DNA of 64,000 nucleotides, from positions 5,452-69,451 of the forward strand of contig DATHGT010000133.1 of NCBI GenBank assembly GCA_035317605.1. The letters run 5' to 3'. The DNA comes from Candidatus Acidiferrum sp. GTDB taxonomy: Bacteria; Methylomirabilota; Methylomirabilia; Rokubacteriales; CSP1-6. A model generated the notes under the pieces. The model ran no database searches and was not told the DNA's origin. It saw nothing but the letters and a program-made list of their open reading frames with translations. Both the position numbers and the translations under genes were made by a program. Of this stretch, positions 7,588-61,705 are shown piece after piece (the stretch's first letter is position 1; each line of letters begins with the position of its first letter).

Positions 7588-7630
7588 CGCCGCTGGCCCG
7601 GCCGTCCCGATCGCGCTCGGCTTGCCATGC

Positions 7631-11390: not shown

Positions 11391-11462
11391 CCGAGAGGCA
11401 GATCCTAGCACATCGATCGCGCGCCACCGACGCGATTGCCGTCGATCGCCCCGACTCGCCCC

Positions 11463-11518: not shown

Positions 11519-11734
11519 CCGACGGGGTGAAGCATCGCGGCGGCTCGCGGGTTCCGTCACTCACCTCGACGTGACTCGCCCGTTCGAGACCGTCCCCTTC
11601 CCGCGCGATCGTCGCCGACGTCCTGACGACCCTCGTCCACATGGCCGGGCTCGTCACGCGAATCATGCCGGAGAGCATGTCTGGCCCCGGCCGTGCAGCC
11701 AGGAGCGCGCTGCCATGAGAGGGAGGACACGCTG

Positions 11735-24749: not shown

Positions 24750-25929
24750 GGTCGACCGTCTCCTCGTAGACCGCCTCGTATTTGGCGGCCATGACCGGCA
24801 AGGCGAACTGCTGCTCGATGCGCCGGCGGGCCGCGCACCCCAGCCGGAGCCGTTCGTCGTCGTCCTCGAGGAGGGCCAGACAGGCGTCGGCGAGAGCTCG
24901 AGGGTCCCTGGGGGGAATCACGCGGCCCGTGTCCGCGACGAGGGACGCGGAATCCCCGACGTCGGTCACCACGCACGGCACGCCGCAGGCCATCGCCTCT
25001 CCGATCACGTTGGGAAATCCCTCGCCGAGCGAGGACGAGCAGGCCAAGTCGACCGCGGCGTGCACCCGCTGCACGTCGTCGCGGCGGCCGAGCAAGTGCG
25101 CGCGCCCCTGCAGGCCCGCCGCCCGCACCCACCCGGCGAGCTCCCGATTCTCCCCGGTGACGCCGTCACCGCACAGGACGAAGTGGACGTCCGCCCGCGC
25201 CGCCGCGATTCGCCGCGCGGCGTCGACGAACGTTTGGTGGTCCTTGTAGGGGTCGAAGCGGGCGACGAGGCCAACCAGCGGGGTGCCGGGAGCGAGCGCG
25301 AGCTCGCGACGCAGCGCCAGCCGGGAGCCGGGATCCGGCCGGAACGTCGAGACGTCGAACCCCGTCGGGATCACGGTCATCCGGGGCGCCGGATAGCCGA
25401 GCGACGCGTGCAGCTGGCGGCCGGCCTCCGAGTTACAGATGATCTTGCGAGGAACTTTCGAGGACAGCGCGACACAGGCGCGGACGGTGAGCCGGGTGAG
25501 GCGCGAGGTCCCCTCGGGGACGAGACTTCCCAGCTGCACGTTCCACACGACGGGAATCCGGCCGGCCAGGAGGGTGGCCAGGCCGCCGATCAAATCCGCG
25601 TGGTGCATCCACGTCTGGACGAGGTCGGGACGCCGGCGCCGCAGCAGGCCCGCCAATCGTAGGATTCCGGCGGGGTTCGGACGGCCCCGCCGCAGCCCGA
25701 GCGACTGCACGGGCACCCCCAGCGCGCGAATCCTGTCACCGATGGGACCGATGTTCGTGAGCGAGATCACGTCGCACGCGAAACGCCGGTGATCGATGGT
25801 GCTCAAAAGCTTGTAGAGGTTGACCTCGGCGCCGCCGGTCGACAGCGTGGTGATGACGTGGAGCAGGCGGATCGGCCGCGAGCTCATCCCTCGCCGAGGT
25901 CTCCCGCGCGTGTCCGGGGCGACGGTCAT
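24730..25929 (-). CDS. glycosyltransferase family 4 (GT-B)
   Basis: Inside the track ORF 24730..26148. The probable start is ATG 25929..25927 (ATGA overlap with the upstream stop); 25887 (MSSRPIRLLHVITTLSTGGAE) is also possible. The C-terminal block is GEGFPNVIGEAMACGVPCVVTDVGD. Confidence 0.75.
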   Translation of the reverse strand: MTVAPDTRGRPRRGMSSRPIRLLHVITTLSTGGAEVNLYKLLSTIDHRRFACDVISLTNIGPIGDRIRALGVPVQSLGLRRGRPNPAGILRLAGLLRRRRPDLVQTWMHHADLIGGLATLLAGRIPVVWNVQLGSLVPEGTSRLTRLTVRACVALSSKVPRKIICNSEAGRQLHASLGYPAPRMTVIPTGFDVSTFRPDPGSRLALRRELALAPGTPLVGLVARFDPYKDHQTFVDAARRIAAARADVHFVLCGDGVTGENRELAGWVRAAGLQGRAHLLGRRDDVQRVHAAVDLACSSSLGEGFPNVIGEAMACGVPCVVTDVGDSASLVADTGRVIPPRDPRALADACLALLEDDDERLRLGCAARRRIEQQFALPVMAAKYEAVYEETVDRVRNRR

Positions 25930-27209
25930 GCGCGGGAGCCGGACGGCGTCGGTGCGAGCAGCGTGCTCGTCCCGAGTCGCGCTTCGGCCCGCTGAGCCCA
26001 GACGGACAGGGTCTGCGTCAACAGGGCCAGCATCATGAACCCTGGCGCGCTGCCCCAGCCGTACTCCGAGAAGGCCAGGACCTGCGTGAGGGTTCCGAAC
26101 AGCAGCACCGCCATGATTCGCTGCCGTCCACGAGCCGCATCGACGCATCGGGCAAGGTAGGCGAACAACCGGAAGTACGCGACCACGGCCACGGCGATGC
26201 CCACGACGCCGCCCCGGACATACGCGCCCAAGAGCGCGCCCGCGTCCGTGGCCTCCACCCGCGTGCCCCAGAGCGAGCCTGCGCTCGCCTGGGCAGTCTC
26301 CGCCATCCAGCTGAGGCGCGCCAGCGCAGAACCGGTCTTCGAGAACGCGGTATACACCTCGCCGAGCTGGGCACTCATCTCCGCGATGGCGAAGACGATG
26401 ACTGGGACGTCAGCCAGCAGGACGATACCGATGCCCGCCGCGGTGACGATGAACGGAAGCGCGGCGGCCAGCCGCGTCCGTCGCGAGAAGATTCGCAGGA
26501 TCGGCCACAGGGCGGCGGAGGCGAGAATGGACAGCCAGACGGTGCCGGATGCCGCCAGGATCACCACAAACACGGCGATCGGGAGGGTGGCCCAGAACGA
26601 CAGGGCGCCACGCGCACCGAGAGCCAGGATGCCCGGGACCAGGAACGAGTAGATGAGCACAGAGGGCTCGGAGGCGAACGACTCGAATCGCGGAAACTCG
26701 TGCCCGGCGATGAAGATGGGGTACGGCTGGAGGAAGCCGAGATAATTGAGCGAGTGCGAGACCTCGACCGGGTCGGCCGAGGTGCCCGAGGTGTACGACG
26801 CATCGAGCGCCGCCGTGATCCCGGGATTGGTGGCGACGGCGACCGCTTGCAAGATCACCATCGACGAGAACACCGCCGCGACGACGACGATGCCGCGAAC
26901 GATGCGCCGGCTGTACGCCGGCCCCAAGCTGTCCACGATCGCGACGAGGACGAGCGCCAGGGCGGCATCCGCGATCCGCTCGACGGATGCCTCCTTCACG
27001 ACGTTCGCACAGAAATAGACCGCGGCGAGGACGAACAGCGGCTCCACCAGGAACGAACGGTGGCGCCGCCAGAGCAGCGGCAGCAACAGCCCCAGCGGGA
27101 GGAGGAGCACGACCTGCAACGATCGTCGATCGCCGATCGCGTTCAGGAATCCGAAGTTTCCAAACGCATAGAAGATGAGGGCGAGCAGGGACACGTAGAA
27201 GGCGGTCAC
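25926..27209 (-). CDS. polytopic membrane protein, Wzy-like (candidate O-unit polymerase)
   Basis: 427 aa with about 11 TM segments and one larger loop near the C-terminal third (AEMSAQLGEVYTAFSKTGSALARLSWMAETAQASAGSLWGTRVEATD). There is no enzymatic motif. The topology and the context next to GTs and Wzx suggest Wzy. Confidence 0.45.
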   Translation of the reverse strand: MTAFYVSLLALIFYAFGNFGFLNAIGDRRSLQVVLLLPLGLLLPLLWRRHRSFLVEPLFVLAAVYFCANVVKEASVERIADAALALVLVAIVDSLGPAYSRRIVRGIVVVAAVFSSMVILQAVAVATNPGITAALDASYTSGTSADPVEVSHSLNYLGFLQPYPIFIAGHEFPRFESFASEPSVLIYSFLVPGILALGARGALSFWATLPIAVFVVILAASGTVWLSILASAALWPILRIFSRRTRLAAALPFIVTAAGIGIVLLADVPVIVFAIAEMSAQLGEVYTAFSKTGSALARLSWMAETAQASAGSLWGTRVEATDAGALLGAYVRGGVVGIAVAVVAYFRLFAYLARCVDAARGRQRIMAVLLFGTLTQVLAFSEYGWGSAPGFMMLALLTQTLSVWAQRAEARLGTSTLLAPTPSGSRA

Positions 27210-27246
27210 CGGCGCCTCCGACCGCAGGGACTCACGACACTCCGGG

Positions 27247-28227
27247 TCACCGCCGGGGCTCCGGCACCCCGCCGGGCATCAGCGTGGTATCGCCCAGGAA
27301 CAGACCGAGCTTGGTGGCGATGCCGCGGGAGAGGGCGAACAGGCGCGGGGGCAGAACGAAATGGACGGCATCGATGAGCGCGAACAGTGGGAACCCCCGA
27401 CGGAGCTCGCGCTCGAGCGCGCGCACTCTCGCCCGCCCCCCTCTGGCGATCCGATACTGGAGGTGGAGGAGATACTTGAGATGCCGCCGACGGCAGGGGC
27501 GTGAGAAGCGGCCGGCGTGGCGGAGATAGGCCCGGCGATAACCGCGGTAGATGTCGTCGTACCGCCGGGAGATGCGGTCGCGCACCTCGTCGTGGTACGT
27601 GGCCAGGTGGTGCTGGAGCACGTGGATGGGGCCGACCTCGCTCATGCGCAGCCAGAAATCCCAGTCCTGGCAGGAGGCCAGGTCGTCGGTGATCCCGCCG
27701 CTCCGCCGAAGCGCGCTCCGGCGGGCCATGGCGAAGGAGAAGCTGCCGCACACGTTCCCCCACTGGAGCTCGTCGAGCGTCACCTCCGCGGGCGTGCTGG
27801 AACGCCTGCCCCCGATCTTCGCGCGGCGGGCGGTGTGCGCACCCTGTCTGACGAACAGGCAGGAGACCGCCACGTGCCGCGCGTGGGATTGCAGGAAGGA
27901 GACTTGACGCGACGTCTTGTCGGGCAACCACTCGTCGTCGTCGTCGAGGAACGCCACGAAATCGGCCGTCGCGCGGGCGATGCCGACATTGCGGGCGCGG
28001 GCGCCCCCCTGCCGAGCCTCGTGCCGGACGTAACGGAGCTGCAGGTCCGGGTGCGCAGCCGCGAAGGCCTTCACGGTCTCGCCGGTGGCGTCGGTCGACG
28101 CGTCGTCGACCACGATGACCTCGAGCGGCCGGTAGGTCTGACCCACGACGCTCTCCAGGGCGCGGCGCAGGAGCGCCGCGCGGTTCCTCGTGGGGATCAC
28201 GATCGAGACCACCGGCGTCGTGGACAT
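27247..28227 (-). CDS. glycosyltransferase family 2
   Basis: The start ATG 28227..28225 (MSTTPVVSIVIPTRNRA...) forms a TGATG overlap with the AsnB copy-2 stop. VVDDASTDAT and the DDDDEW (DXD) motif are present. Confidence 0.8.
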   Translation of the reverse strand: MSTTPVVSIVIPTRNRAALLRRALESVVGQTYRPLEVIVVDDASTDATGETVKAFAAAHPDLQLRYVRHEARQGGARARNVGIARATADFVAFLDDDDEWLPDKTSRQVSFLQSHARHVAVSCLFVRQGAHTARRAKIGGRRSSTPAEVTLDELQWGNVCGSFSFAMARRSALRRSGGITDDLASCQDWDFWLRMSEVGPIHVLQHHLATYHDEVRDRISRRYDDIYRGYRRAYLRHAGRFSRPCRRRHLKYLLHLQYRIARGGRARVRALERELRRGFPLFALIDAVHFVLPPRLFALSRGIATKLGLFLGDTTLMPGGVPEPRR

Positions 28228-30074
28228 CAGGCCGGGACCAGCACCTGGCGCCGCCACTCGGCCAACAGGGTCAGACCGAACAGGAGGTTGGCGTCACCGG
28301 ACGCTCCCCGGAGATCCGTCCAGCTCGCCGCGGCCGCCGTCACGTCGATGCGGTCGCGGAGGAATTCGTCGCTCTTCCAGACCCGGTCCCACGGCTCGTC
28401 GCTCTCCCGCGCCGCCTCGGCGAGCCAGTGGCCGACGGGGGCCCCGAATCCGCGCTTGGGGATCGCGAGCACTTCCTTCGGCAGGAGGTCACCGATGGCC
28501 TGCCGGAACAGCCGCTTGGTGGCCCCTCCCGCGACGCGATATCGGTCGGGCAGCGCGAACATCCATTCCACCAGCCGATGGTCGAGCAGCGGCACCCGGC
28601 CTTCCACCGACGCGGCCATCGTCATCTTGTCGAGGAGCGGCAGCAGGTCGCCGGCCAGGTACGTGTGCAGATCGAAATACGTCCGGCGGCTGACCGCGGT
28701 GACCAGCCGCGGATCGTGGAAGATCGGCGACAGCAGAGCGTCCAGTCGCTCGGTCAGGCGCCGCGTCCAGGCCGGGTCCCTCAGCAGACGACTCATGAGA
28801 TCGACACGTCCGGAGATCCGGCAGAGGTAGTCGACCACCGGGCTTCGCAGGCGCAGGGCCTGCGCGCTGCCGCCGGCCCCGAGCGCGAGGCCGGCGAGAC
28901 GGCGGAGGCCCCGCGGCATCGCCTCGAGACCGCGCCGCCACGCCTGGTCACTATAGCGGGGATAACCCCCGAACACCTCGTCGCCCCCGGTGCCGTTGAG
29001 AATGACGGTGATCCCGTCTTCGCGGGCCAGCCGCGACAGGAGCAGGGTCGGCACCGCCGCGGAATCGCAGACGGGCTCGTCGATGGAGGCGGCGACCTCG
29101 GGCAGCGCGGCGATCGCCGCCTTGGCGTCGAGGAGCAGCTCGCGATGGCGCGCGCCGTGGCGGGCGGCCACCATGCGCGCGGCCGGCCGCTCGTCGTAGA
29201 GGTGTCCCTCGAACCCGACCGAGAAGGTCCGCACCGGCTGGGTCACCTGCTCGGCCATCAGCGCGACCACGGTGCCGCTGTCCAGTCCGCCGCTGAGGAA
29301 GATGCCCAGCGGGACGTCGCTGCGCTGCTGGAGGCGAATCGCGTCGCGCAGCAGCTCCAGCAGGCGCTCCCTCGCCTCTCGCTCGTCGATCCGAGCGTCG
29401 CCGAAGCGCTCGACGTCCCAGTACCGTCGGGTCTCGATGCGGCCGTGTCGGTCGATCTTGAGGTAGTGCGCGGGCGGGAGCTTCCGGATCCCCTCGACGA
29501 GGCAGTCGGGGGCCGGGACGTACATCATGAGCAGGTACATGAGGAACGCGGTCTCGTCGATCGTGCGCCGGCCCGTCAGCTCGACGAGCGAGCGCAGCTC
29601 GGAGGAGAAGGCGAAGCGTCCGGGCTCGGCGACGTAGAACAGCGGCTTGATGCCGAGCCGGTCGCGGGCCACGAACAGCTCGCGCTCCCGCCGGTCCCAG
29701 ACGGCGAACGCGAACATGCCGTTGAGATCGGCGAGACAGGCCGGGCCCCGCTCCTCGTACAGGTGCAGCAGGACCTCGGTGTCGCTGTGCGTCCGGAACG
29801 TGTGCCGGCCGACCAAGTCGGCCCGCAGCTCGAGGAAGTTGTAGATCTCGCCGTTGAACACGATGCAGTAGCGCCCGTCCTCGCTCTCGATCGGCTGGTG
29901 CCCGCCCTTGACGTCGATGATCGAGAGGCGGCGGATGCCGAAGGTCAACCCGCCGTCCGTGAAGCTGCCCTGATCGTCCGGGCCACGGTGCACCATCCGG
30001 TCCAGCATCGACTGCAGCGCCCGCGTCTCAGGCGGGGCGCCGTCGAACCGGTGGATCCCGGCGATCCCGCACAT
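28227..30074 (-). CDS. asparagine synthetase (glutamine-hydrolysing)-like amidotransferase, copy 2
   Basis: 615 aa with MCGIAG and SGGLDSG. It is paralogous to 22833..24749 (roughly 45-50% identity by eye). Confidence 0.85.
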   Translation of the reverse strand: MCGIAGIHRFDGAPPETRALQSMLDRMVHRGPDDQGSFTDGGLTFGIRRLSIIDVKGGHQPIESEDGRYCIVFNGEIYNFLELRADLVGRHTFRTHSDTEVLLHLYEERGPACLADLNGMFAFAVWDRRERELFVARDRLGIKPLFYVAEPGRFAFSSELRSLVELTGRRTIDETAFLMYLLMMYVPAPDCLVEGIRKLPPAHYLKIDRHGRIETRRYWDVERFGDARIDEREARERLLELLRDAIRLQQRSDVPLGIFLSGGLDSGTVVALMAEQVTQPVRTFSVGFEGHLYDERPAARMVAARHGARHRELLLDAKAAIAALPEVAASIDEPVCDSAAVPTLLLSRLAREDGITVILNGTGGDEVFGGYPRYSDQAWRRGLEAMPRGLRRLAGLALGAGGSAQALRLRSPVVDYLCRISGRVDLMSRLLRDPAWTRRLTERLDALLSPIFHDPRLVTAVSRRTYFDLHTYLAGDLLPLLDKMTMAASVEGRVPLLDHRLVEWMFALPDRYRVAGGATKRLFRQAIGDLLPKEVLAIPKRGFGAPVGHWLAEAARESDEPWDRVWKSDEFLRDRIDVTAAAASWTDLRGASGDANLLFGLTLLAEWRRQVLVPA

Positions 30075-30077
30075 GGC

Positions 30078-31976
30078 TCAGCGCGCCTCCATTCCCTCGA
30101 CGAGCACGGTCATCACCCGCGAGGCCGGGAGCGTCACGCGGGCCCGCACCCGCGACGACAGCGTGGGGACAGCCTGACCATACTCCCCGTGATACCAGCC
30201 GAGCGGGAACGCGCCCCCCTCACCTCGATGATGCGACGTCTCGCACGTCGCCGGTCCGTCGGCTCCCTGGCACTGCACCAGCGCCGTGATCGTTCCAGCG
30301 GGCGTGGACACGGCGAGTCGATCCGGCGCCGCCGGCATCGGGTCGGATCCCGGCGCCCAGTGGAAGAACGCCTCGATCTCGGCCGGCCCCGAACCGGCGT
30401 AGCGGTCGTGAAGGGTGAAGCCGTCGGTGCGGCACGAGAGCGTGCGCTCGAATCGGACGCCCCGCCGCACGCGCTCGAAGCCGTCGTGGGCCACGACCAC
30501 CTCGACTCCGGCGGCGCTCACCTTGACGTCGGCGCGGCAGGAGGACCTCGTGTAGGCGGGTGGGAACCATCCCAGCCAGTCGTCGGGAAATGGCTCGAAC
30601 CCGTCGAGGGCTACCGAGTTGTGGGCGAAGGCCTGGACGGGGAATCGCGATCCGGCGTCCGTCGCGTAGCTGCGGCGTCCCACGTCGACGAGCAGCGGGC
30701 GACCCTCCAGGAACGCGCAGAAGGCCCCGCTGTCGTTGTGGCCATGGCTCGGGTGATCGGGGCGGCCGGTTCGCTCGATCCGCCAGAAGATCGTCAACGG
30801 TCCCACGTCGGTGCGATACCAGCCGCTCTCCGGAAAGGCCTCGACCGACGGCGCGGCCGATCGCTCGGCGCGCGGGGCTGCGGCGGGAGGCTCGATGAGA
30901 CGGCCCCAGCCACGCGGCGGACCGGGGGCCACGAGGTCGAGCAGCCAGGGCACCGTGCAGTCCGGCGACACGTCGCCGATCCGCGGGATGTCGACGGCCC
31001 CGTCGGGCGACTCCAGCAAGAAGAACCGGCAGCGATCGAGCATGCGCCGTCGATACGGCTCCGTCAGTCGGAGGACGCCGTCGTCTCCGACCGCCTCCGC
31101 CGCGCGGTGGATCTCCGCGACGGTGCGGGTGAGCAGGAAGTGATAGTGGGAGGAGCCTTCGCGGAGAAACCCGTCCTCGGTGACCAGGCGTGGCAGCATG
31201 CGCTCGAGGAGCGCGCGTCCGAGGGACGCGTACCGGTCCTGGTCCGTGGCCGCTCCGAAGAGGTAGAGCGCTCGCGCGTTGTTGACGAGGTGGTTGTTCG
31301 TGCGGTCGCCGTGATCCTCGAGGCGCCCGGCCAGGAACGCGCCCATCTCGCCCAGCGCGCCCACCAGCCGGCGCTCGGCGTCGGAGTTTCGCGGCGAGCA
31401 CGCGCGCGTCGCCGACAGGAACACCAGCGCGTTGGCGATGCGCTCGGACACCGAGTAGCTTTCCCAGGCCGGCGCGCCCGGGCGCGGCGGGCCACAGCGC
31501 TCGACCCACTGGAGCATGCGGTCCAGGATCCACATGGGGAGTTGTGGGCAGGAGTGCGTGGCGAGCAGGCGAAGCGCCCATCCCCAGCGGTGCAGGGCCA
31601 GGACGTCTTCGAGCTCCGCGAATTCGGCCGCCCACTCGGGGGCCGGCACCGCCGAGACGCTGGTGGTGACCAGCGGGAGATCCACCGGCGGGGGACACGC
31701 GACGTCACCACCGTTGACCGGCCACGGCCGAGCGAACCCGCGGAGGAACGACGCGCTCATCGCGGTCGGGGCACCGGAGGGCGGAAGCCCGTCCATGGCC
31801 GACCGGCCCGCCCGGCCCTGACGAAATGCGCGGCGGCGCTCGAGCAAGCGCAGCCCCTCGCGGACGGTATGGACGCCCCAGCCCAGGCGCCGCTCGGCGA
31901 TCACGCGGCGGAGATAGTTCCGCCATTCCGGTGTCGTGAACACCTGAAGTCGCGAGGGGCGCCGGAGCGGAGTCAC
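30078..31976 (-). CDS. heparinase II/III-like family protein (polysaccharide-modifying, alpha/alpha-toroid plus beta-sandwich)
   Basis: Track ORF 30078..32066. The probable start is GTG 31976..31974 in a GTGA overlap with the upstream stop. It contains NHLVNNARALYLFG and HGHNDSGAFCAFLEG, blocks characteristic of the Hepar_II_III family. Confidence 0.55.
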   Translation of the reverse strand: MTPLRRPSRLQVFTTPEWRNYLRRVIAERRLGWGVHTVREGLRLLERRRAFRQGRAGRSAMDGLPPSGAPTAMSASFLRGFARPWPVNGGDVACPPPVDLPLVTTSVSAVPAPEWAAEFAELEDVLALHRWGWALRLLATHSCPQLPMWILDRMLQWVERCGPPRPGAPAWESYSVSERIANALVFLSATRACSPRNSDAERRLVGALGEMGAFLAGRLEDHGDRTNNHLVNNARALYLFGAATDQDRYASLGRALLERMLPRLVTEDGFLREGSSHYHFLLTRTVAEIHRAAEAVGDDGVLRLTEPYRRRMLDRCRFFLLESPDGAVDIPRIGDVSPDCTVPWLLDLVAPGPPRGWGRLIEPPAAAPRAERSAAPSVEAFPESGWYRTDVGPLTIFWRIERTGRPDHPSHGHNDSGAFCAFLEGRPLLVDVGRRSYATDAGSRFPVQAFAHNSVALDGFEPFPDDWLGWFPPAYTRSSCRADVKVSAAGVEVVVAHDGFERVRRGVRFERTLSCRTDGFTLHDRYAGSGPAEIEAFFHWAPGSDPMPAAPDRLAVSTPAGTITALVQCQGADGPATCETSHHRGEGGAFPLGWYHGEYGQAVPTLSSRVRARVTLPASRVMTVLVEGMEAR

Positions 31977-33958
31977 AGGAGGCCCCGAGCCGTCAGGAAG
32001 CCGACGAGGCGGTCGTCGGCTCGGCCGTCGAGGACGTGGAACGTCCGGCGGAGCGCGGCCGGCCAAGCGGCCCGCAGCCGCGCGAGCACGGCCGGATCGA
32101 GCAACGCCTCGAGCGCCTCCGCCAGTCCGGCGGCGGAGTGCGCGAAGAGCGCGGCGTCCTTCATGTCGACCAGCGGCCCGATGTTGACGATCGCTCGATT
32201 GTCGAACACCACCGGTGGCCGGCCGAGGGCGATCGCCTCGAGGCCGGTCGTCGAATTGGTGAGCACCACCGCGTCGCTCGCGCGGATGTGTGCGTGGAGG
32301 TCGCTGTCGACGCCGAGGAGCCGCCAGCCGTGGCGCGGGCGGCCGCCGAAGAGACGCTGCACGTCGGCCGCGATGGGACAGTGATAGTGCGGCTTGAACA
32401 GGAGCACGAACTCCCCGGCTCCGTCGGCGGTGGCGCCGGCCAGCGCCTCGAGCAGGGCGAGCGAGTCGTCCCGGTCGCTGGAGCCGGCCACCAGCAGGAT
32501 GCGGCGCTCGAGGGGCAGATCAAGGCTCGCCCTCGCCTCGCGCGCGGGAGCCGCCTCGACCCTGAGCATGTTGTAGCGGACCGCGCCCACGACCTCGGAT
32601 CGCGTCTCGGGATAGCCGGTCGCCCGCATGATCTGAAGGGGCCAGTCCCCGGTCGCCAGGTAGTAGTCGGGCAGCGGCGTGTCGAGCCGGTCGTGGCCGG
32701 CGAGCGCCCGCTCGATTTCACCCTTGGCGAAGAAGAACATGAGCGTGTTCGACGACACGGTCGTGTGCTGAAAGGCGACCGTGCGGGTCGCGGTCCCCGA
32801 CGCCGCGTGCCAGATCGCGCGCTCCATGGGCTGGAACTCGCAGGGGTGCAGCACGAACGAGGGCCGGTGGGCGATCATCAGCCGACGCATGGCGGCGGCG
32901 AGCACGAGGTTCGTCGGCAGCTCGAAGCCCGTGAAGCTGCGGTCCAACTCCTCGCGCCACAGCGGCGTCACGTCCCACTCCGCGAAGTGAGCCGACAGAC
33001 GGCGCCGCAACCTCCGATAGTGCCACGTCCATCGGAGCCCATCCGCTCCGGCCAGCGCGGAGCATAGCTCGCCGACGGTGGCGAACAACAGGACCGGCAC
33101 GATCCGTCCGTGATCGAACGCCCGCCGGATGTTCCGACGGCGCCGGAGCAGGCGCCACGGCCACAGAGTGAGCAGCACCACCTGCCACATCGGCCCCCGG
33201 CTGCGCAGGGCCGGGAACACCGGCTCGAGGTTCCGCTCGCGGACGACCTCCGAGTCGGCCGCCTCGTACAGCACGGGGTATCGGCTGAACACCACCGAGC
33301 GCACCGCCGAATCCGGCCGGGGACGGCGGAGACCGATCATGGCCAGCACCAGACGGTTGCCGAGCGTCTGGATGCCCCATGCCGTGCGCATGGCCACGAA
33401 GCGCAACCAGAAATGCCTGAGACCGCTCAGCCGGGTACGAAGTCCCCGGCCGCGGGCCGGCCGTCTCGTCATCTCCTCGACCGCCAGCCCCCGCGCGCGC
33501 AGTCCGGACACCAGGCAGGCGGCCAGAGATCCGTCGACCAAGTCGAGCCGGGCACGTGGGAATCCGCGGCGGGCCAGCACCCCCTCGACCAGGAGCAGGG
33601 CGTAGAGCCGGTTGAGGAAGGGCGTCCTCAGCGGGCTCTTCTCACACGCATCGGTGAACCACCACGCGCTCGTGCCGTCCCGCTCGAGCAGCGTCAACAG
33701 CGAGGGGCCGGCCCCGATGCGCTGACGGACGGCCTCGTCGAGAAACGCGGGGTAGAGCCCGCGCAGCTGCTCGAGCGCCCGCTCGGAGACGTCCTCGACG
33801 GGAAGGACCGTGGCGCTCGCGCGGGTCAGGGCTTCGGCGAGGTGGGCCACGTAGAGGCTCGGGACGATCCCGAGGGGAAGGATCGTCACCGGACCCCGGT
33901 CCGACGGAATCCCCGCCGGATCGAGGTGATCGACGATGAGCAAGAGGGGCTCGCTCAC
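31973..33958 (-). CDS. large (661 aa) putative GT-B-like transferase of the KpsC/KpsS (capsule_synth) or TagF-like type; candidate nonulosonic-acid or polyol-phosphate transferase
   Basis: The C-terminal half has RILLVAGSSDRDD ... FVLLFKPHYHCP ... DAVVLTNSTTGLEAIALGRPPVVFDN, resembling the two-His 'KPH.H' and terminal donor-binding blocks of TagF/Capsule_synth folds. No Pfam-grade motif can be confirmed by eye. It is a remote paralog of 44359..46287. Confidence 0.4.
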   Translation of the reverse strand: MSEPLLLIVDHLDPAGIPSDRGPVTILPLGIVPSLYVAHLAEALTRASATVLPVEDVSERALEQLRGLYPAFLDEAVRQRIGAGPSLLTLLERDGTSAWWFTDACEKSPLRTPFLNRLYALLLVEGVLARRGFPRARLDLVDGSLAACLVSGLRARGLAVEEMTRRPARGRGLRTRLSGLRHFWLRFVAMRTAWGIQTLGNRLVLAMIGLRRPRPDSAVRSVVFSRYPVLYEAADSEVVRERNLEPVFPALRSRGPMWQVVLLTLWPWRLLRRRRNIRRAFDHGRIVPVLLFATVGELCSALAGADGLRWTWHYRRLRRRLSAHFAEWDVTPLWREELDRSFTGFELPTNLVLAAAMRRLMIAHRPSFVLHPCEFQPMERAIWHAASGTATRTVAFQHTTVSSNTLMFFFAKGEIERALAGHDRLDTPLPDYYLATGDWPLQIMRATGYPETRSEVVGAVRYNMLRVEAAPAREARASLDLPLERRILLVAGSSDRDDSLALLEALAGATADGAGEFVLLFKPHYHCPIAADVQRLFGGRPRHGWRLLGVDSDLHAHIRASDAVVLTNSTTGLEAIALGRPPVVFDNRAIVNIGPLVDMKDAALFAHSAAGLAEALEALLDPAVLARLRAAWPAALRRTFHVLDGRADDRLVGFLTARGLL

Positions 33959-36268: not shown

Positions 36269-37359
36269 CGGGCCATTCTCTGCTCGACGGCCTCCTGGAC
36301 CACCGCCTCGAGGGCGCTGACGAATCCCGCCATGATCTCGGCGTCGCCCAAGGTCACCCGAATGCAATCCTGGACCGCCGGCGCGCCGAAGGGACCTCGG
36401 ACGAGATAGCCGCGGCCGCGCAGCGCATCGACGATCACCGCCGGGCTCACGCTTCCGGGAAGCCGCACGAGCTGGAAGTTCGTCGGGCAGCCCGGCACGT
36501 CGAGACCCAGACGGGTCGCCCCCTCGCAGAGCACTCGACGGCCCTCCTCGATCTCGCGCCGGAACGCCTCACCCATCTCGGGGTGATCGAGCACGTAGCA
36601 CCCCAGACTGATCGCCACGCTGTTGACCTCGTAGGATCCGCGAACCCTCCGGACCGCGTCCACGATCCCGGGGTTCCCGGCCAGGTAGCCGAGCCGGAGC
36701 CCGGCCAGGCCGCCGACCTTGGAGAACGTCCGCGTCACGACGACGTTGTCGAACTCCGTGACCAGGGACAGGGCGGTGATGGGATGGAACGGAAAGTACG
36801 CCTCGTCGACGATGAACAGGGCGCCGACGGCGGCGGCGGCCGACGCGACCTCACGCAGCTCCGCGAGGCTGACCACGGTCCCCGTCGGCTGGTCAGGATT
36901 CGGCAGCGCGACCAGCCGGGGACGCTGCCGGACCTTCGAGATGAGCAGGTCCAGGTCCAGCCGGCGGTCGCGACCGTACGCCACCGTGTCGGGCACCGCC
37001 TGGAACATTCGCGTGTAGATGGCGTACATGGCGTAGGTCGGGTCCGGCGTGACGACCCGATCACCCGGCCGGACGTAGGCATGGAACAGCACGCGGATCG
37101 CCGCGTCGGACCCCGGCGTCAGATGAAGATGGTCGACGGGAAGCTCGAGCTCACGACTCAGACGGGCGTAGAGCGGCGAAGGATCCGGATACGCGCACAG
37201 CGTCTCCGGCGTGATCTCCGACAGCATCGCACGCACTGTCGGCTCGGGAAACGGCGTGACCCGCTCGTTCCGGTCCAGGCGCACGAAGGCCAGGCGCTCG
37301 GCCATGGCGTCGTCGACGCGGTGGATGGCGAGAAGGTGAGGATTGGGTTCCGGCCTCAT
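36265..37359 (-). CDS. class I/II PLP-dependent aminotransferase (HisC/CobD-like)
   Basis: Start ATG 37359 with a perfect AAGGAGG 6 nt upstream on the minus strand. The PLP-Lys motif is TRTFSKVGGLAGLRLGY. Confidence 0.8.
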   Translation of the reverse strand: MRPEPNPHLLAIHRVDDAMAERLAFVRLDRNERVTPFPEPTVRAMLSEITPETLCAYPDPSPLYARLSRELELPVDHLHLTPGSDAAIRVLFHAYVRPGDRVVTPDPTYAMYAIYTRMFQAVPDTVAYGRDRRLDLDLLISKVRQRPRLVALPNPDQPTGTVVSLAELREVASAAAAVGALFIVDEAYFPFHPITALSLVTEFDNVVVTRTFSKVGGLAGLRLGYLAGNPGIVDAVRRVRGSYEVNSVAISLGCYVLDHPEMGEAFRREIEEGRRVLCEGATRLGLDVPGCPTNFQLVRLPGSVSPAVIVDALRGRGYLVRGPFGAPAVQDCIRVTLGDAEIMAGFVSALEAVVQEAVEQRMAR

Positions 37360-37428
37360 GCGTCCTCCTTCATGATCGGAAAGTGACCGCGGTGCCGCGG
37401 GTCGACCCATCGCGCCGGCACGCCCGCG

Positions 37429-38361
37429 TCATGGCTCGAGCCCCTGCGCCCACTCGACCATCCTGCGTAGCCCTTCGTCGAGCGGCGTCACCGGTCGCCA
37501 GCCGAGGTCCTGCTCGGCCCGGCTGATGTCCGCGCACAGTCCGAACTGGTCGCCGATGTGGCCAGCCAGTTCCTGGACCGGGTAATCGGGCTCGCGGCCG
37601 AGGGCGACGGCCAGCCGGGAGATGAGATCGCCCACCTCCGTGCGCTCGCCGGCCCCGATGTTGTACTCGAGGGCCGGAGTGCTCGGCCGGTACAACGCCC
37701 GGAGCCACGCGTCGATCACGTCGTCGATGTAGACGAAGTCGCGGAAGCGCTTGAGCGACCCCGTGACCGGCACCGGCACACCCTGCAGCAGGTACGCGAG
37801 GTAGATGCTCGCCATGCCCTGCCGCAAGTTGCCGAGGTTCTGGCCGGGACCGTAGACGCTGAACATCCGGAAGCTCGTCACGCTCAGGCCCTCGGCCGCG
37901 GCCAGACGCAGGACATGTTCGGAGGTCAGCTTGGAGACTCCGTAGTAGGACAGCGGCACGCACGGCGCGGTCTCCCGGACCGGAAGCTCGTCGGGGCTGC
38001 CGTAGACCGCCATCGAGCTGGCGTAGATGAACCGTGGCGTGCCCTGCTCCAGGCACCAGCGAGAGAGGAGCACGGTGGAGCCGGCGTTCGCCTGGAGGTC
38101 GTAGTACGGTACCTCCGCCGAGGCGGGTCCCGAAGACTGGGCAGCCAGGTGGCACACGGCGTCGAAGCGCGGCGGCGGCACCTGGTCCAGAAAGTTGGAC
38201 CGGTCGAGATCGAGCTCGACGATCCGCGCCGCCCGCGGAACGGCGGCGCGCTGCCCGGTTCGCATGTTGTCGATCACGACCACGTCGTGGCCATCCTCGA
38301 CGAGCCGGCGCGCCAGATGGCTCCCGATGAAGCCGGCGCCGCCGGTCACGAGCACGCGCAT
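37429..38361 (-). CDS. NAD-dependent epimerase/dehydratase (UDP-sugar 4-epimerase-like)
   Basis: The real start ATG 38361..38359 (MRVLVTGGAGFIGSHLARRL) forms a TGATG overlap. YGVSK catalytic motif. Confidence 0.8.
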   Translation of the reverse strand: MRVLVTGGAGFIGSHLARRLVEDGHDVVVIDNMRTGQRAAVPRAARIVELDLDRSNFLDQVPPPRFDAVCHLAAQSSGPASAEVPYYDLQANAGSTVLLSRWCLEQGTPRFIYASSMAVYGSPDELPVRETAPCVPLSYYGVSKLTSEHVLRLAAAEGLSVTSFRMFSVYGPGQNLGNLRQGMASIYLAYLLQGVPVPVTGSLKRFRDFVYIDDVIDAWLRALYRPSTPALEYNIGAGERTEVGDLISRLAVALGREPDYPVQELAGHIGDQFGLCADISRAEQDLGWRPVTPLDEGLRRMVEWAQGLEP

Positions 38362-39464
38362 CAGCGCCCGCCTTCCCCGGCGGCCGGCGGCGAAACTCGA
38401 TAGAGCGCGGCCAGCCGGTCGTCCTTCCGGCCCAGGCGCCGGGACGCGACGTCTTCGGCGAGCCGCACCTCGCGCCCGTCCTCGGCCGACCGATAGATCG
38501 CGTTGAGCAGCCGGAGCGCCTGCGTCCCCTCCTCGAACGAGATCGGGTGGGGGCGGCCGTCGAGCAGATCGGCGACCACGTCGAGCAGGAACGGCCGGTG
38601 GCCCAGGCCATAGGCGTTGGGAAAGATCTCGGAGTGCAGCGCGCGCTCGTCCGGAGCCGGGGTGAACACGGCCAGCTCGTTGGCGGCGATGCCCTGGAGC
38701 ACGGCGGTGCCGCGCTCGGCCAGGACCGAGATCGACGCCTCGAAGTCGTCGGGGCGCGCGGCCGTGGTCACCTCGATCACGCCCAGCGCTCCGCTGGCGA
38801 ACCGGATGGTGGCCACCGCGGTGTCTTCGACCTCGATGTCGACGAGCTGGGTCGCGGTGCGCGCGTTCACCGCGTCGATGTCGCCCACGATGTAGCGCAC
38901 GAGGTCGATGTAGTGGATCCCCTGGTTGGTCAGCGCGCCGCCGTCCATGGCCCACGTCCCCCGCCACGGGTCGCGCCGGTAGTAGGCCTGGGGCCGGCAC
39001 CAGCGCACGCGCACGGTGCCGAGCACCGGACGGCCCAGCTCGCCGGAGGCGAGCGCGGCGCGGACCTTGCGCACGGCCTTGTTGTAGCGGTTCTGGTACA
39101 CGGGAAAGATCTTGACCCCCGCGCGCTCCGCCGTCCGCCTGAGCGTCTGCACGTCCTCCCAGGCCAGGGCCATGGGCTTTTCGAGGATCACGTGCTTGCC
39201 GTAGCGCTCCATCGCGTCGAGCGCGTGCTCGGGGTGCATCCCGCTCGGGGTGAGGATGTTGACGACGTCGATCTGCTCCCGGCGCAGCATCTCGTGATAG
39301 TTGGTGTAGGCGGGCACGCCGTGCTTGCGCGCGTACGCCTCCGCCCGCTCGGGCTGAAGGTCGCAGACCGCGGCCAGCCGGGCCCGCGGGAGATCGGCGA
39401 GGTGATCGGCGTGGTGACCGGCGATCCGTCCGCACCCGACGACCGCGAAGCTCAGGGGGGCCAT
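38361..39464 (-). CDS. Gfo/Idh/MocA family NAD(P)-dependent sugar oxidoreductase
   Basis: The real start ATG 39464..39462 (MAPLSFAVVGCGRIAGHHA...) forms a TGATG overlap. N-terminal Rossmann fold plus the EKP block (HVILEKPMA). Confidence 0.8.
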   Translation of the reverse strand: MAPLSFAVVGCGRIAGHHADHLADLPRARLAAVCDLQPERAEAYARKHGVPAYTNYHEMLRREQIDVVNILTPSGMHPEHALDAMERYGKHVILEKPMALAWEDVQTLRRTAERAGVKIFPVYQNRYNKAVRKVRAALASGELGRPVLGTVRVRWCRPQAYYRRDPWRGTWAMDGGALTNQGIHYIDLVRYIVGDIDAVNARTATQLVDIEVEDTAVATIRFASGALGVIEVTTAARPDDFEASISVLAERGTAVLQGIAANELAVFTPAPDERALHSEIFPNAYGLGHRPFLLDVVADLLDGRPHPISFEEGTQALRLLNAIYRSAEDGREVRLAEDVASRRLGRKDDRLAALYRVSPPAAGEGGR

Positions 39465-40210
39465 CACTTCGCGGGCTCGATACCGTGCGCGCGAAGCCAG
39501 AATTCCAGCATGGGCACCTGCCACTCGTAGTCGACGTCGAAGCCGCCCCATTGCTGGAGCGGGAAGATCTTCTGCCCCATCCACTTCTGGGGCAGCAACC
39601 CGTCGTGGAGGTGCTCCAGGCAGCGCGGCCTCACGATCGAGGTGCCCATGTCGGCGAACCAGACGTCGCCCTGGGAGTCGCGATCGCAGTTCAGGGTCGC
39701 GGGATCACCGAAGGTCTCGAAGGGGACGAACGGATGGAGCAGCCCGTCCCCGCCGATCTTGCGGGCGCGGAGCGGGCTCCACATGTTGTAGCGCGAGACG
39801 GTGACGGCCGAATCGTAGTCCGGATGCTCCCGGAGCACGTCGATCCCCTCTTCGAGAGTCTTGGCGGTGATGGTGGCCGCGTTGGCCATCAGCAGCACGA
39901 TCAGCTCGACCTCGCCCCCGTCCCGTCGGACCTCGTCGCGAATCACCTCGTAGCCGTGGACGTAGGCGTCTTCGCCCAGCGCCTGGTTCGTGGCCAGGTG
40001 GGCGGGCCGGTCGATGATCCGGGCGCCGTACTCCGTCGCGATGGCCTTCAAGCGCGGGGAGTCGGTCGAGAGGTACACGCGGTCCACGCGCTTGGCGTCG
40101 CGGGCCGCCATGAGCGGATACGCGACGAGGGGCCGGCCCAGGAGCGGAAGGACGTTCTTGCCTGGAAACCCCGAGGACCCTTCTCGTCCCAGCATCAGTG
40201 CACAGATCAC
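39464..40210 (-). CDS. acylneuraminate/CMP-sugar cytidylyltransferase family (NeuA/KdsB-like, CTP_transf_3)
   Basis: 248 aa. ICALMLGREGSSGFPGKNVLPLLGRPLVAYPL matches the sugar-binding N-terminal signature of CMP-nonulosonate/Kdo synthetases. Confidence 0.75.
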   Translation of the reverse strand: MICALMLGREGSSGFPGKNVLPLLGRPLVAYPLMAARDAKRVDRVYLSTDSPRLKAIATEYGARIIDRPAHLATNQALGEDAYVHGYEVIRDEVRRDGGEVELIVLLMANAATITAKTLEEGIDVLREHPDYDSAVTVSRYNMWSPLRARKIGGDGLLHPFVPFETFGDPATLNCDRDSQGDVWFADMGTSIVRPRCLEHLHDGLLPQKWMGQKIFPLQQWGGFDVDYEWQVPMLEFWLRAHGIEPAK

Positions 40211-40316
40211 GGTCGACCTCCTTCGTCGTCTCTCCGTTCACGGTCGAGCGCCCGTCCGGCGTCACTGTATGCGACCCGGAAGTTTTCGTCTAGCAACGGT
40301 CCCGAGTTCCGCCCGT

Positions 40317-41126
40317 TCACCGGATCGGCTCCAGCTCGTAGTACTGAAGCTTCGGAAAGTAGTTCGGGTACATGAGCGTGCCCAGCCACCACTGGGTGAG
40401 CGGGTTGACCGGCTCCGGGAACACCTGGACCCGACTCTGGTACACGATCTTCACCCGCGCGTAGCTCAGGACCTTGGAAAAGTCCGCCTCCGAGAACTCG
40501 AAGATATGGCTCTCGACGTTGGGCCACCCGTGCGGCCGGTGCGTGATTCGCGTCCGCAGCATCCACGGGATGGTCAGGAAGATCCGCCGCGCGGCGACCC
40601 GGATCAGCTCGTCGAGCGCGGCCAAGGGGCTGCGGACGTGCTCGAGGGTCTCGCAGCTGACGACGTAGTCGAACGCCTGGTCGGCGAACGGCAGACGCTC
40701 GAGGTCGGCCAGGCACGCCTGGGAACCATCGCTCCTGATCTTGCGGGCGCAGGCCAGCAGGATGTTGACCCCCACCCCTCGCTTGACGCCCAGCCGGGAC
40801 AGGAAGAATCCATCCGAGGCGGCGGCGTCGAGCACGCGCGCGTCGCCCACCGTGCCCACGCGCCGGCGCAGCATTCCGGTGAGCTCGTACAACTGGGACG
40901 CCAGGTGCAACTGCTTGAACTCTCCGTGAAGCTCCTCGTGTCCCCAGTGCCCTTCGACGATCCGCTGGCCCTCGCGGCTCCACCACTCCCGGAAGTCGAC
41001 GTCCCGCGCCAGCTTCCGGCGGTACGCGCGCGTCGCCAGCCCGTGCCACAGCCGCTCCGGCTGGAGGCCCGCGCGCGCCGCGACGCTCCGAAGTCTGTGG
41101 CGAAGCGCGGAGGCGACCGGCGTCAT
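40317..41126 (-). CDS. class I SAM-dependent methyltransferase
   Basis: The real start ATG 41126..41124 (MTPVASALRHRL...) is in an ATGA overlap. The track ORF 40317..41942 has 272 spurious N-terminal codons. Motif VLDAAASDGFFLS and the acidic motif FDYVVSCETLEH are present. Confidence 0.65.
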   Translation of the reverse strand: MTPVASALRHRLRSVAARAGLQPERLWHGLATRAYRRKLARDVDFREWWSREGQRIVEGHWGHEELHGEFKQLHLASQLYELTGMLRRRVGTVGDARVLDAAASDGFFLSRLGVKRGVGVNILLACARKIRSDGSQACLADLERLPFADQAFDYVVSCETLEHVRSPLAALDELIRVAARRIFLTIPWMLRTRITHRPHGWPNVESHIFEFSEADFSKVLSYARVKIVYQSRVQVFPEPVNPLTQWWLGTLMYPNYFPKLQYYELEPIR

Positions 41127-41974
41127 GCCCGATCTCCGCGCGGACGGTCGAGTTTCGGCCGAGGAACCGCGAGCAGTCGGGCCGTGTAGCCATGGTACTC
41201 GCCGAGGGACTGCGGAAACGCCTCCCCGGTGATGGCGACGGAGGCCACCTCGGTGCAGCCGAGCCCCTCGAACACCCGCCGGTAGTCGCGGGCGAACACG
41301 TACCCGCAATTCGCGGCCTCGAGCTCGACGACACACACGTACTTCCGCGCCACCCGCACCATGTGCCGGAAGATGGCGCGGCTGTTCGGGTGCACGTGGA
41401 TGAGGACGGCCATCGTGAAGATCACGTCCGCGCTCCCACTCTCCAGTCCGGGAAGGACGTCCTCGACGGAGCCCACGGTGATCGTGCTGACCGCGGACAC
41501 CTCGGGAAAGATCGACGGCATGTAGGCGACGGCATGGGCGTTGATCTCCACGCCGTTCAGCCGCTCGTAACCGAGCGTGAGCAGGCCGTTCAGGTTCGCT
41601 CCGCAGTTGCACCCGAGCTCGAGAATGCGATCGTGACGCGTGACGTGAGGACCCCAGAACTCGTGCAGGAACCGCACGATGTCCTGCGACTTGGCCCCGT
41701 AGGAGGCCGGGTGATTGCTGTCGGTGGTGGCGTACTCGGCGCCGTTGGTGCGGGTGCGCCAGTAGGCTTGGCACTCCGACCGGGTCATGACCCATGGCGC
41801 CGTCACGCCACGCTCCGTGATCCACTGGTTGACGCGATTCAGGCGCCGCGCGGGCAGCGACTCCCCGTGCGCGCCCACGCGATCCTGGTAGAAGAGCCAT
41901 CGTCCCAGGTGCTGTCCGAAGAACTTCTTCTGCACCTTCCACAGCCCGATTCCCGCGTCACGTGCGGTCAACAT
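41123..41974 (-). CDS. class I SAM-dependent methyltransferase
   Basis: The real start ATG 41974..41972 (MLTARDAGIG...) is 2 nt after the upstream stop. Motif I is ILELGCNCGANLNGL, followed by ADVIFTMAVLIHV. Confidence 0.7.
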   Translation of the reverse strand: MLTARDAGIGLWKVQKKFFGQHLGRWLFYQDRVGAHGESLPARRLNRVNQWITERGVTAPWVMTRSECQAYWRTRTNGAEYATTDSNHPASYGAKSQDIVRFLHEFWGPHVTRHDRILELGCNCGANLNGLLTLGYERLNGVEINAHAVAYMPSIFPEVSAVSTITVGSVEDVLPGLESGSADVIFTMAVLIHVHPNSRAIFRHMVRVARKYVCVVELEAANCGYVFARDYRRVFEGLGCTEVASVAITGEAFPQSLGEYHGYTARLLAVPRPKLDRPRGDRA

Positions 41975-41976
41975 CG

Positions 41977-43536
41977 TCACCTCTTTCCCAGCCGCCCCTG
42001 CCCATGACCCAAGCCGAGGAAGCTCAGCCCGGCGAGGGCAGGCCACAGCACCACGAGTATTCCCAGTAACGCGAAGTACAGGACCGACGCCAGAGCAAGG
42101 CCGCCGATCGTCCCCCATTCCAGCTGGACCCGCAACCAGTCGCTCGGGCCGGCGAGGATCGTCACGGCGCAGGTCCCGACCACGACGAACGCGGCGAGCC
42201 GGTCCCGGAGCCCGCGGAGATAGCTCTGGCCCAGGAACCGACTGTTCACCCACTCGTAGATTTGCCGGCTCACGAATCCCCAGCCGACGAGCTGGACGGC
42301 CACGCCGATGGCGCCCAGCCCCAGACCCGGCACCCGCGCCGTCGAAGGAGCGACGGTGAAATAGGTGATGAGCAGGTCGGGAATGGCCAGCCCCAGGCGC
42401 AGGTTCCGAAGCTGCACGGTGCGCTCGGTGGCCTTCAGGGCGGCGTCGTTGAGCTGTCCCATCGTCTGGACGACCGGGTAGAAGGCCATCACCATCAGGA
42501 CCGGCACCGCCGCGAGATATTCGGGTCCGGCCAACCACTCGACGAGCGATCGGCTGGCGAGGCTCAGCCAGCAGCTCAGCGCCAAGGCGACGAAGAACAA
42601 CGACTGGCTGAACCGCGCGTACACCCGGGCCGCCTGGACCCGGTCGCTCCCGGCCATGGCCTTGGAGATTTCCCTCCAGAAGATCGGCACGGCCGCGCCG
42701 GCGAACGTCAAGGCGAGCAAGGACCACCGAGAGGCGAGGGCGAAGTAGGCCTGCTCGGACGACCCATACGCCCGCTGCAGGATGTACGCGCTGAACCAGG
42801 ATCCGGCGCAGCCGTAGAGGTTGACCACGATCATGGGGCGCGCGTAGCGCCACCAGCGCGTCAGGTACCACCGGGAATGCTCGAACAGACGCCCGATCCA
42901 GCACTCGTCTCGCCTGATCGTGAGCAGCCACCAGGCCAGAACCGCGCACAACACCAGCGACGACCCCACGTTGACCCGGACGTAGCTGTCGAAATCCAGC
43001 TCTCCCAGCGAATGCAGCAGCAGCAGGGCGGCGACGTTCAGCCCCGCCACCGCGGCCCCGATGGCCTGGGTGCGGACGGTCAACGCCTTGCTGTCGCCCA
43101 GGCTCTGCAAGGCGATGCCCACGAAGACGAGCCAGTCGAGGATGGTCAGCCACACGATTCGATCCGGCGGTTGGGCCAGCCAGAGCCAGCCCGCGGCCCC
43201 GGTGGTCACGCCGACGCCGACCAGGATCAGCGTCAGTGCGAGCTGGCTGGCCAGACAGGCCACGTAGAGCCTCGTCAACGAACCGCTGCGGCGCTCCTGG
43301 GACGAAAAGGTGAAGAACGCGTCGTACGCGCTCAGGTCGACGACGCCGCGCACCGAGGCGGCCGTGGTCATGAGGAAGGCGTAGCTTCCGTAGGCCACCG
43401 GCCCCAGCGCCCGCGGAACGACGGTGAGCGTGATCGCCGACGCCCCCAGCTGGACGAACCTGGCCAGCAGCGTGGCCAGGTATCGATACCGGATGCTGTC
43501 GGCGAAGCTCACCGTCGGCACGACGTCCTCGGTCAT
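41977..43536 (-). CDS. Wzx-like (MOP/polysaccharide biosynthesis protein family) lipid-linked oligosaccharide flippase
   Basis: The real start ATG 43536..43534 (MTEDVVPTVSFADSIRYRYLATLL...) is in an ATGA overlap. It is about 519 aa with 12-14 TM segments. The N-terminal pattern is typical of the Polysacc_synt family. Confidence 0.7.
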   Translation of the reverse strand: MTEDVVPTVSFADSIRYRYLATLLARFVQLGASAITLTVVPRALGPVAYGSYAFLMTTAASVRGVVDLSAYDAFFTFSSQERRSGSLTRLYVACLASQLALTLILVGVGVTTGAAGWLWLAQPPDRIVWLTILDWLVFVGIALQSLGDSKALTVRTQAIGAAVAGLNVAALLLLHSLGELDFDSYVRVNVGSSLVLCAVLAWWLLTIRRDECWIGRLFEHSRWYLTRWWRYARPMIVVNLYGCAGSWFSAYILQRAYGSSEQAYFALASRWSLLALTFAGAAVPIFWREISKAMAGSDRVQAARVYARFSQSLFFVALALSCWLSLASRSLVEWLAGPEYLAAVPVLMVMAFYPVVQTMGQLNDAALKATERTVQLRNLRLGLAIPDLLITYFTVAPSTARVPGLGLGAIGVAVQLVGWGFVSRQIYEWVNSRFLGQSYLRGLRDRLAAFVVVGTCAVTILAGPSDWLRVQLEWGTIGGLALASVLYFALLGILVVLWPALAGLSFLGLGHGQGRLGKR

Positions 43537-61696: not shown

Positions 61697-61705
61697 GTCT
61701 CGGCG

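Follow-up and report, generated by a model that had tools for sequence, protein, structure and literature searches.

Adjacent ABC-Exporter and Wzx/Wzy-Type Modules in 64 kb of DNA from an Uncultured Soil Bacterium: Most Likely Two Surface Glycans

Introduction

When genes for two different glycan-export routes are found within one region of a genome, do they serve one product or instead two? The question is raised by a stretch of 64,000 nucleotides (nt) of contig DATHGT010000133.1, from the metagenome-assembled genome (MAG) of an uncultured soil bacterium, Candidatus Acidiferrum sp. Coexisting within this stretch, the whole of which is referred to here as the window (64 kb), are an ATP-binding cassette (ABC) exporter of the Wzm/Wzt type, a Wzx flippase, a polymerase candidate from the Wzy_C superfamily, a protein with a polysaccharide co-polymerase (PCP) fold, and a ligase-family protein. 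That coexistence had been proposed in a preliminary description of the same DNA, and all of the open reading frames named there are indeed present where they had been placed.

The ABC genes and the Wzx/Wzy genes are, however, two separately transcribed, neighboring modules rather than one interleaved locus. Most likely, i.e., at a probability of roughly 0.6, these adjacent modules build two different, undecaprenyl-linked surface polysaccharides.

Layout of the Region

As the window is of 65-72% GC, raw lists of its open reading frames consist mostly of spurious, overlapping frames. Genes were called by third-position GC, giving 51. I use here the terms ‘module A’ for the region from 1 to 21.6 kb, which includes the ABC exporter, and ‘module B’ for what lies with the Wzx and Wzy-like genes. 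In module A, wzt (1250..2536, minus strand) overlaps a methyltransferase gene on one side (a gap of -4 nt) and, on the other, wzm (2536..3300, minus strand; a gap of -1 nt). In module B, the genes for the Wzy-like protein (25926..27209) and for Wzx (41977..43536) are both found within a co-directional string of 31 genes (21671..56949, all minus strand), in which 17 of the 30 junctions are overlapping or abutting and no gap exceeds 269 nt. With wzm and wzt thus overlapping their own neighbors, wzx and wzy sitting inside a same-strand string, and some 18 kb plus five strand switches separating the wzm/wzt unit from that 35-kb string, these are separate units. The earlier view, of two routes in one locus, therefore stands as to the sharing of a single 64-kb region but not as to the routes being intermixed.

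Each module also appears to be complete in itself. Found in module A are an initiator, a glycosyltransferase (GT) of several domains, methyltransferases, a ligase-type protein, and a Wzt that bears a carbohydrate-binding domain, while to module B can be assigned GTs, sugar pathways, Wzx, the Wzy-like protein, and the PCP. Genes for an outer-membrane polysaccharide export protein (OPX/Wza; Poly_export) or for a bacterial tyrosine kinase (BY-kinase) are found neither in the window nor just past either of its edges.

The ABC Exporter

By homology, Wzm/Wzt is predicted to be an O-polysaccharide exporter, with Wzt belonging to the subclass which recognizes capped chains. Wzt matches the ABC ATPase family PF00005 at 74 bits and, over residues 283-411, the C-terminal Wzt_C domain (PF14524) at 109 bits, the cutoff being 30.4. 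Wzm matches the ABC-2 permease family PF01061 at 82 bits and possesses about seven hydrophobic segments. The closest solved relative of Wzt is Aquifex aeolicus WztC (7K2T/8DKU; E of 6e-77), and that of Wzm is the permease of the A. aeolicus O-antigen exporter (6M96/6OIH; E of 2e-32), with chains of this exporter outranking the teichoic-acid TarGH for both proteins.

Export of capped chains by way of a carbohydrate-binding domain on Wzt is the Escherichia coli O8/O9a model, and the position of the methyltransferases beside the transporter parallels that of the chain terminator of that system, WbdD. By analogy with E. coli, the occurrence of such a Wzt domain next to methyltransferases would thus fit the capped-chain model. 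A candidate capping enzyme is the S-adenosylmethionine (SAM) methyltransferase encoded at 438..1253 (minus strand; Pfam Methyltransf_9/31), which is the one that overlaps wzt by 4 nt. A paralogue of it, 63% identical, is found on the other side of wzm/wzt (3523..4284, plus strand), overlapping by 4 nt the gene of the ligase-type protein. The first unit of the ABC module is a further SAM methyltransferase, of 373 amino acids (aa), which is seen in the window as its C-terminal part (1..435, minus strand; Pfam Methyltransf_23/11/12), since its gene runs past the left edge; the full gene is found on another sequence (L080).

The Flippase

The 519-aa Wzx-like protein has no Pfam or NCBIfam match of its own, with PF01943 not reached even at E <= 0.01. 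Nonetheless it can be placed, via transitive homology, as a flippase of the PST/Wzx (PST/MOP) family: 23 of 24 aligned, full-length relatives, themselves 23-82% identical to the window protein, match PF01943 (best E of 1.3e-10), and hence it is the window copy alone which is sub-threshold. The homology search supplied 97 relatives in all, of which many are named as oligosaccharide flippases or O-antigen/teichoic acid export proteins, with PF01943. A crude hydropathy scan indicates at least nine strong hydrophobic segments, and the gene overlaps its neighbors within the 31-gene string. A scan of the family against NCBIfam resulted only in sporadic single matches, and its profile found nothing meaningful among PDB sequences, i.e., no solved structure.

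What kinds of loci do such flippases otherwise inhabit? A scan of reference genomes revealed 75 loci, from Anaerolineales, Nitrospirota, Elusimicrobia, Proteobacteria, Campylobacterota, Vibrio, and others. Neighbors were surveyed using tblastn, with all 51 window proteins compared against 78 flippase-relative loci, to 10 kb on either side. Recurring in that survey are NeuB (40 loci), epimerases (33-44), HAD proteins (20), GFO/IDH/MocA proteins (18), CMP-transferases (16), and AsnB (13-14), while relatives of Wzm, Wzt, the Wzy-like protein, and the PCP-like protein are seen in none. As NeuB thus accompanies 40 of the 78 loci and Wzm/Wzt accompany none, the flippase may be described, on these comparisons, as a nonulosonic-acid-associated Wzx subfamily which lacks a conserved tie to ABC exporters.

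A cassette containing this Wzx subfamily also recurs, in Anaerolineales and other MAGs (L002, L003, L004), corresponding to 31973-46287 (minus strand) of the window. Along with Wzx it includes a LIC12162-family protein, a GFO/IDH/MocA protein, an epimerase, a methyltransferase, a class I/II aminotransferase, a CMP-transferase, a HAD protein, and a LIC13510-like protein of about 665 aa. It looks like a second, uncharacterized pathway for a CMP-activated sugar, with its own transferases, standing beside the NeuB pathway.

Polymerase Versus Ligase

Two proteins come into question here, that of 427 aa encoded within module B and, in module A, one of 651 aa (4281..6236, plus strand). The former has no direct match to Pfam or NCBIfam. 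Just four relatives came from a word-indexed search, but exhaustive searching by profile yielded 211 cluster representatives, almost all being 400-470 aa in length and matching from end to end. PF04932 (Wzy_C) is matched by 36 of 110 sampled members (best E of 7.5e-9), and no other family recurs. The protein has about 10 transmembrane (TM) segments, with R174 and R298 positioned in its two long loops. Across the family R174 is invariant, within a loop motif of G-x4-R-x2-SF-x2-EPS, and E181-P182-S183 as well as R298 are nearly so. Neither this protein nor the Wzx-like protein, with PF04932 and PF01943 being matched by relatives of each, appears to be an unrelated transporter, which was the possibility that the preliminary description had raised against itself.

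Other comparisons were less productive. An AlphaFold2 (AF2) model of the 427-aa protein, made from a four-sequence alignment, is poor (pLDDT of 56), with its Foldseek matches representing noise, the family profile found nothing meaningful among PDB sequences, and alignment of the family to the lone 651-aa sequence, using hhalign, was of no help. In terms of context, a relative of 31% identity (L165) directly follows a GT2 gene, as is the case in the window, within a locus of heteropolysaccharide type that has GT4s, HisH/HisF, and a small Bac_transf initiator and that is without an ABC exporter.

The 651-aa protein matches PF04932 at 53 bits and has 12 TM segments. A motif published for ligases, H[NSQ]X9GXX[GTY] (bioRxiv 10.1101/2022.10.31.514599), occurs once among the 51 window proteins, as HNIYAQFLAEQGGLG at residue 410 of this protein, inside Wzy_C, where 0.69 occurrences would be expected by chance over all 51. 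In the 427-aa family the motif is present in 4 of 110 members and absent from 106. This distribution points to the gene at 4281-6236 as encoding the ligase or O-oligosaccharyltransferase type, leaving that at 25926-27209 as the polymerase candidate. That is, the 427-aa protein is a candidate Wzy polymerase, belonging to a divergent branch and placed at the superfamily level only, and the 651-aa protein is a candidate WaaL-type ligase or O-oligosaccharyltransferase, two types which by sequence are indistinguishable here. Searched alone against PDB sequences, the latter finds no solved relative. At its C-terminus it carries an additional domain, extracytoplasmic and of about 130 aa (residues ~520-651), which matches no family.

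The Co-Polymerase-Like Protein

The PCP-like protein (58724..60211, minus strand) has TM helices at residues 40-58 and 451-469, bracketing a helical domain of about 390 aa. It has no kinase domain as only about 26 residues follow the second TM helix. It has no direct match to Pfam or NCBIfam, none of 28 family members matches Wzz (PF02706) or GNVR (PF13807) at E <= 0.1, and the family profile has no match among PDB sequences. Its AF2 model (pLDDT of 77) nevertheless displays a small α/β base with long helical hairpins, and the 11 best PDB matches to that model by Foldseek are all co-polymerases (Wzc, WzzE, Wzz), with E down to 6e-8 though with low TM-scores. As modeled, then, the protein has a co-polymerase fold while lying outside of curated sequence families. 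Assignment to PCP-2a, i.e., the Wzc type, was considered and rejected, there being neither a BY-kinase domain nor an OPX (Wza) partner.

With which route would such a protein work? KpsE, a PCP-3 protein, is the partner of an ABC exporter. Relatives of the window protein, however, adjoin flippase/GT4/AsnB loci that have no ABC exporter nearby, with one of them (L084) neighbored by a Polysacc_synt flippase and by a polytopic protein with what I read, from its sequence, as a Wzy_C-like loop. From this context I infer that the PCP belongs to the Wzy route, a placement which is ranked above that of a KpsE-like partner of the ABC route.

Many residues are invariant within this family of 39 relatives (42-88% identity), which no source names and for which neither Pfam nor NCBIfam offers a model. 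As such it is a candidate for curation as a new co-polymerase family.

Initiation and Variability of the Site

The sole initiating enzyme in the window is encoded at the junction of modules A and B (19829..21616, plus strand). It is a fusion, consisting of a WecA-like polyprenyl-phosphate HexNAc-1-P transferase (PNPT domain PF00953, residues 82-227; TIGR02380) followed by the non-catalytic TM/CoA_binding_3 half (PF13727) of WbaP/WcaJ-type phosphoglycosyltransferases. Residues 368-587 align with positions 2-220 of TIGR03025, TIGR03023, and TIGR03022, the matches to TIGR02380 and TIGR03025 being partial. The fusion is conserved, at 73-76% identity in four metagenome contigs (L085-L088) and, full length, at about 36% in L089, L091, and L148.

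Those same four contigs have neighbors which are wholly different from those of the window. In L088 the WecA-like gene directly adjoins a pair of genes for a UDP-sugar dehydrogenase and an epimerase, with other Wzy_C proteins and a GT4 present as well. In the window the equivalent pair (60464..62665, plus strand; L088 copies 71-76% identical) are conserved flank genes, the right flank as a whole consisting, in order, of the PCP, a regulator, the dehydrogenase, and the epimerase. As relatives with so similar a WecA-like gene carry other cassettes, the site seems to behave as a hypervariable cassette position between conserved flanks. All four contigs start no more than 1.5 kb upstream of the WecA-like gene, and this comparison covers the downstream side only. 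The breaks themselves suggest strain-level variation that disrupts assemblies.

Other Genes of the Two Modules

Besides those already described, module A has a further methyltransferase, a PhyH-type Fe(II)/2-oxoglutarate dioxygenase (10434-11678, minus strand), and a 1137-aa GT2-GT4-GT2 glycosyltransferase by Pfam (13890..17303, plus strand), the last being a candidate for the processive polymerase of the ABC-route glycan. Side by side are an AlgX/AlgJ-like SGNH protein (6268-7587, minus strand; PF16822 at 96 bits) and an MBOAT protein (7631-9118, minus strand; PF03062 at 102 bits), an arrangement (6268-9118) which is a signature of post-export polysaccharide O-acetylation. By analogy to alginate, where AlgI/AlgJ/AlgX provide the paradigm, these two are a candidate pair for that role. 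Interleaved with the ABC-module genes are large, secreted-type proteins (11693-13846, plus strand; 17321-19396, minus strand), with subtilase plus FG-GAP, bacterial Ig plus FG-GAP, and 963-aa FG-GAP architectures being seen, including at 12121-15012 of L080. These could be glycoprotein substrates, or they could be unrelated.

Module B encodes GT4, AsnB, GT4, the Wzy-like protein, GT2, a second AsnB (the two being 41% identical), a heparinase II/III-like protein (30078-32066, minus strand), and a LIC13510-like transferase. The heparinase-like protein lies between an AsnB amidotransferase and the LIC13510-like gene, and could be an enzyme that modifies polymer rather than a degradative lyase. 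Further along are the second CMP-sugar pathway, Wzx, a PhyH-type dioxygenase (43533-44378, minus strand; overlapping wzx by 4 nt), a LIC12162-like transferase, and HisH/HisF/WbuX. The nonulosonic-acid set is PseB/PseC/PseG/GNAT/NeuB/CMP-transferase-like. With one PhyH-type dioxygenase per module, these enzymes may hydroxylate a sugar or substituent.

Two Glycans or One?

Established for the two modules are family and fold memberships, operon layout, and conserved neighbors. From these a scheme can be drawn. In module A, the WecA-like enzyme would prime the lipid carrier, polymerization of the chain, by the GT2-GT4-GT2 enzyme, would take place in the cytoplasm, and the non-reducing end would be capped by one of the methyltransferases of the cluster. 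Wzt_C would then recognize the capped chain, with Wzm/Wzt exporting it whole. In module B, approximately five GTs would build up a repeat unit that includes a nonulosonic acid (by way of the NeuB pathway, along with acetamidino and amidated-sugar functions). After flipping by Wzx, polymerization of that unit in the periplasm would fall to the Wzy-like protein, and control of chain length to the PCP, which lacks a kinase domain. Finished chains presumably would be transferred to an acceptor, whether lipid A-core or protein, by the 651-aa protein with the ligase motif. What I infer in this scheme are substrates and acceptor, the capping step, and which protein the PCP partners, as well as, solely from gene counts in the window, the sharing of one initiator and one ligase by both modules.

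An ABC-exported polymer and a Wzx/Wzy nonulosonic-acid polymer might instead be joined outside of the cytoplasmic membrane into one composite glycoconjugate, in the manner of rhamnan-PSP in Lactococcus lactis or of EPA in Enterococcus faecalis. Gram-positive bacteria provide established examples (PMC9574508), and in the window both routes share one contiguous region, in which just one initiator and one protein of ligase type are encoded. A membrane protein whose gene lies immediately beyond the left edge of the window, and is truncated by the end of the contig, shows a match to YfhO (GT-C), but one of 50 residues only and below the Pfam cutoff, and a clear joining enzyme of the GT-C or LCP type was not found. 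As no flippase locus among the 78 is near an ABC exporter, and as Wzy-like and PCP-like relatives also inhabit ABC-free loci, no functional coupling is seen elsewhere; the modules, too, are separate transcription units at a hot-spot for variable cassettes. Joining consequently seems unlikely, and slightly more doubtful still is its specific form for a Gram-negative-type bacterium, in which both polymers start from the one fused initiator and the 651-aa protein serves to link the two or to attach both to a common acceptor.

About as improbable as joining in general is that the Wzx route leads instead to protein O-glycosylation or to addition of single units to the core, with the 651-aa protein a PglL-type O-oligosaccharyltransferase, and the 427-aa protein a ligase or transferase rather than a polymerase. 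The Wzy_C superfamily does span O-oligosaccharyltransferases, ligases, and polymerases, one flippase relative matches the NCBIfam ‘O-glycosylation flippase’ model, and the unusual C-terminal domain of the 651-aa protein, the several secreted FG-GAP/Ig-like proteins among the ABC module, and the absence of an OPX (Wza) gene are all in keeping. Proteins with the PCP fold normally accompany a polymerase, however, the ligase motif is missing from nearly all of the 427-aa family, and the gene for the 427-aa protein is found, both in the window and in L165, inside of GT-rich repeat-unit loci. The least likely option, and a very improbable one, is that only the ABC route exports glycan, with the Wzx-like, Wzy-like, and PCP-like proteins having drifted to other roles or undergoing decay. 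All three do fall below Pfam and NCBIfam thresholds directly, yet all are full length, display coding-type third-position GC, are found in tightly coupled operons, and belong to conserved families (97, 211, and 39 relatives, respectively) with invariant residues. Two adjacent modules building two glycans thus remains the preferred reading.

Comparison with Known Systems

The main value of this analysis is in annotation, that is, in its placement of three divergent families (flippase, polymerase candidate, and PCP-like) and in its definition of a nonulosonic-acid-associated Wzx subfamily that extends across many phyla. In the public record the Wzx-like (HMH50526.1) and Wzy-like (HMH50512.1) proteins are both annotated as ‘hypothetical protein’. 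Coexistence of the two routes is real but follows known patterns, and would pose a new question only if two products were proven to be joined.

The O locus of the Klebsiella pneumoniae complex, in which wzm/wzt are always present, directly adjoins the Wzx/Wzy K locus, lying between it and hisE (PMC9176290), and loci that have both routes and join their products are an established finding in L. lactis (cwps), E. faecalis (epa), and Streptococcus pyogenes (gac) (PMC9574508). The suggestion that two glycans from one locus and a hybrid pathway are both uncommon accordingly does not hold, adjacent loci being standard in the former and dual-route loci being found in Lactococcus, Enterococcus, and Streptococcus. 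The Klebsiella K and O loci resemble the window in that Wzx/Wzy and ABC clusters are side by side as separate units, for two glycans (in Klebsiella, capsule and O-antigen), and are hypervariable between conserved flanks (PMC9176290). The window differs in being without the wza/wzb/wzc export and kinase genes, its PCP having no kinase domain, in possessing a far larger Wzx/Wzy module (35 kb, 31 genes) that is centered on nonulosonic acids, and in its source, an uncultured soil MAG.

The cwps and epa loci also possess, in one region, an ABC exporter, a Wzx-family flippase, a polymerase-like protein, and a Wzz-like protein with two TM segments (PMC9574508). Those systems join their products on peptidoglycan using a GT-C or LCP enzyme, whereas in the window a joining enzyme was not identified, a protein with a WaaL-type ligase motif is present, and the modules have no conserved linkage. 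With E. coli O8/O9a and with A. aeolicus the window shares an ABC-2 permease plus an ATPase bearing a C-terminal Wzt_C domain, though a coiled-coil kinase/methyltransferase like WbdD was not identified in the window.

Closest in gene content to module B are Wzx/Wzy loci for nonulosonic-acid capsules or O-antigens, e.g., Acinetobacter K loci, in which genes of NeuB/PseB/PseC/PseG type are found in one operon with wzx and wzy, as they are here. Relative to those loci, however, the Wzx, Wzy, and PCP of the window belong to divergent subfamilies that are missed by current Pfam and NCBIfam models, and the window adds a second CMP-sugar cassette, with its LIC12162-like and LIC13510-like proteins.

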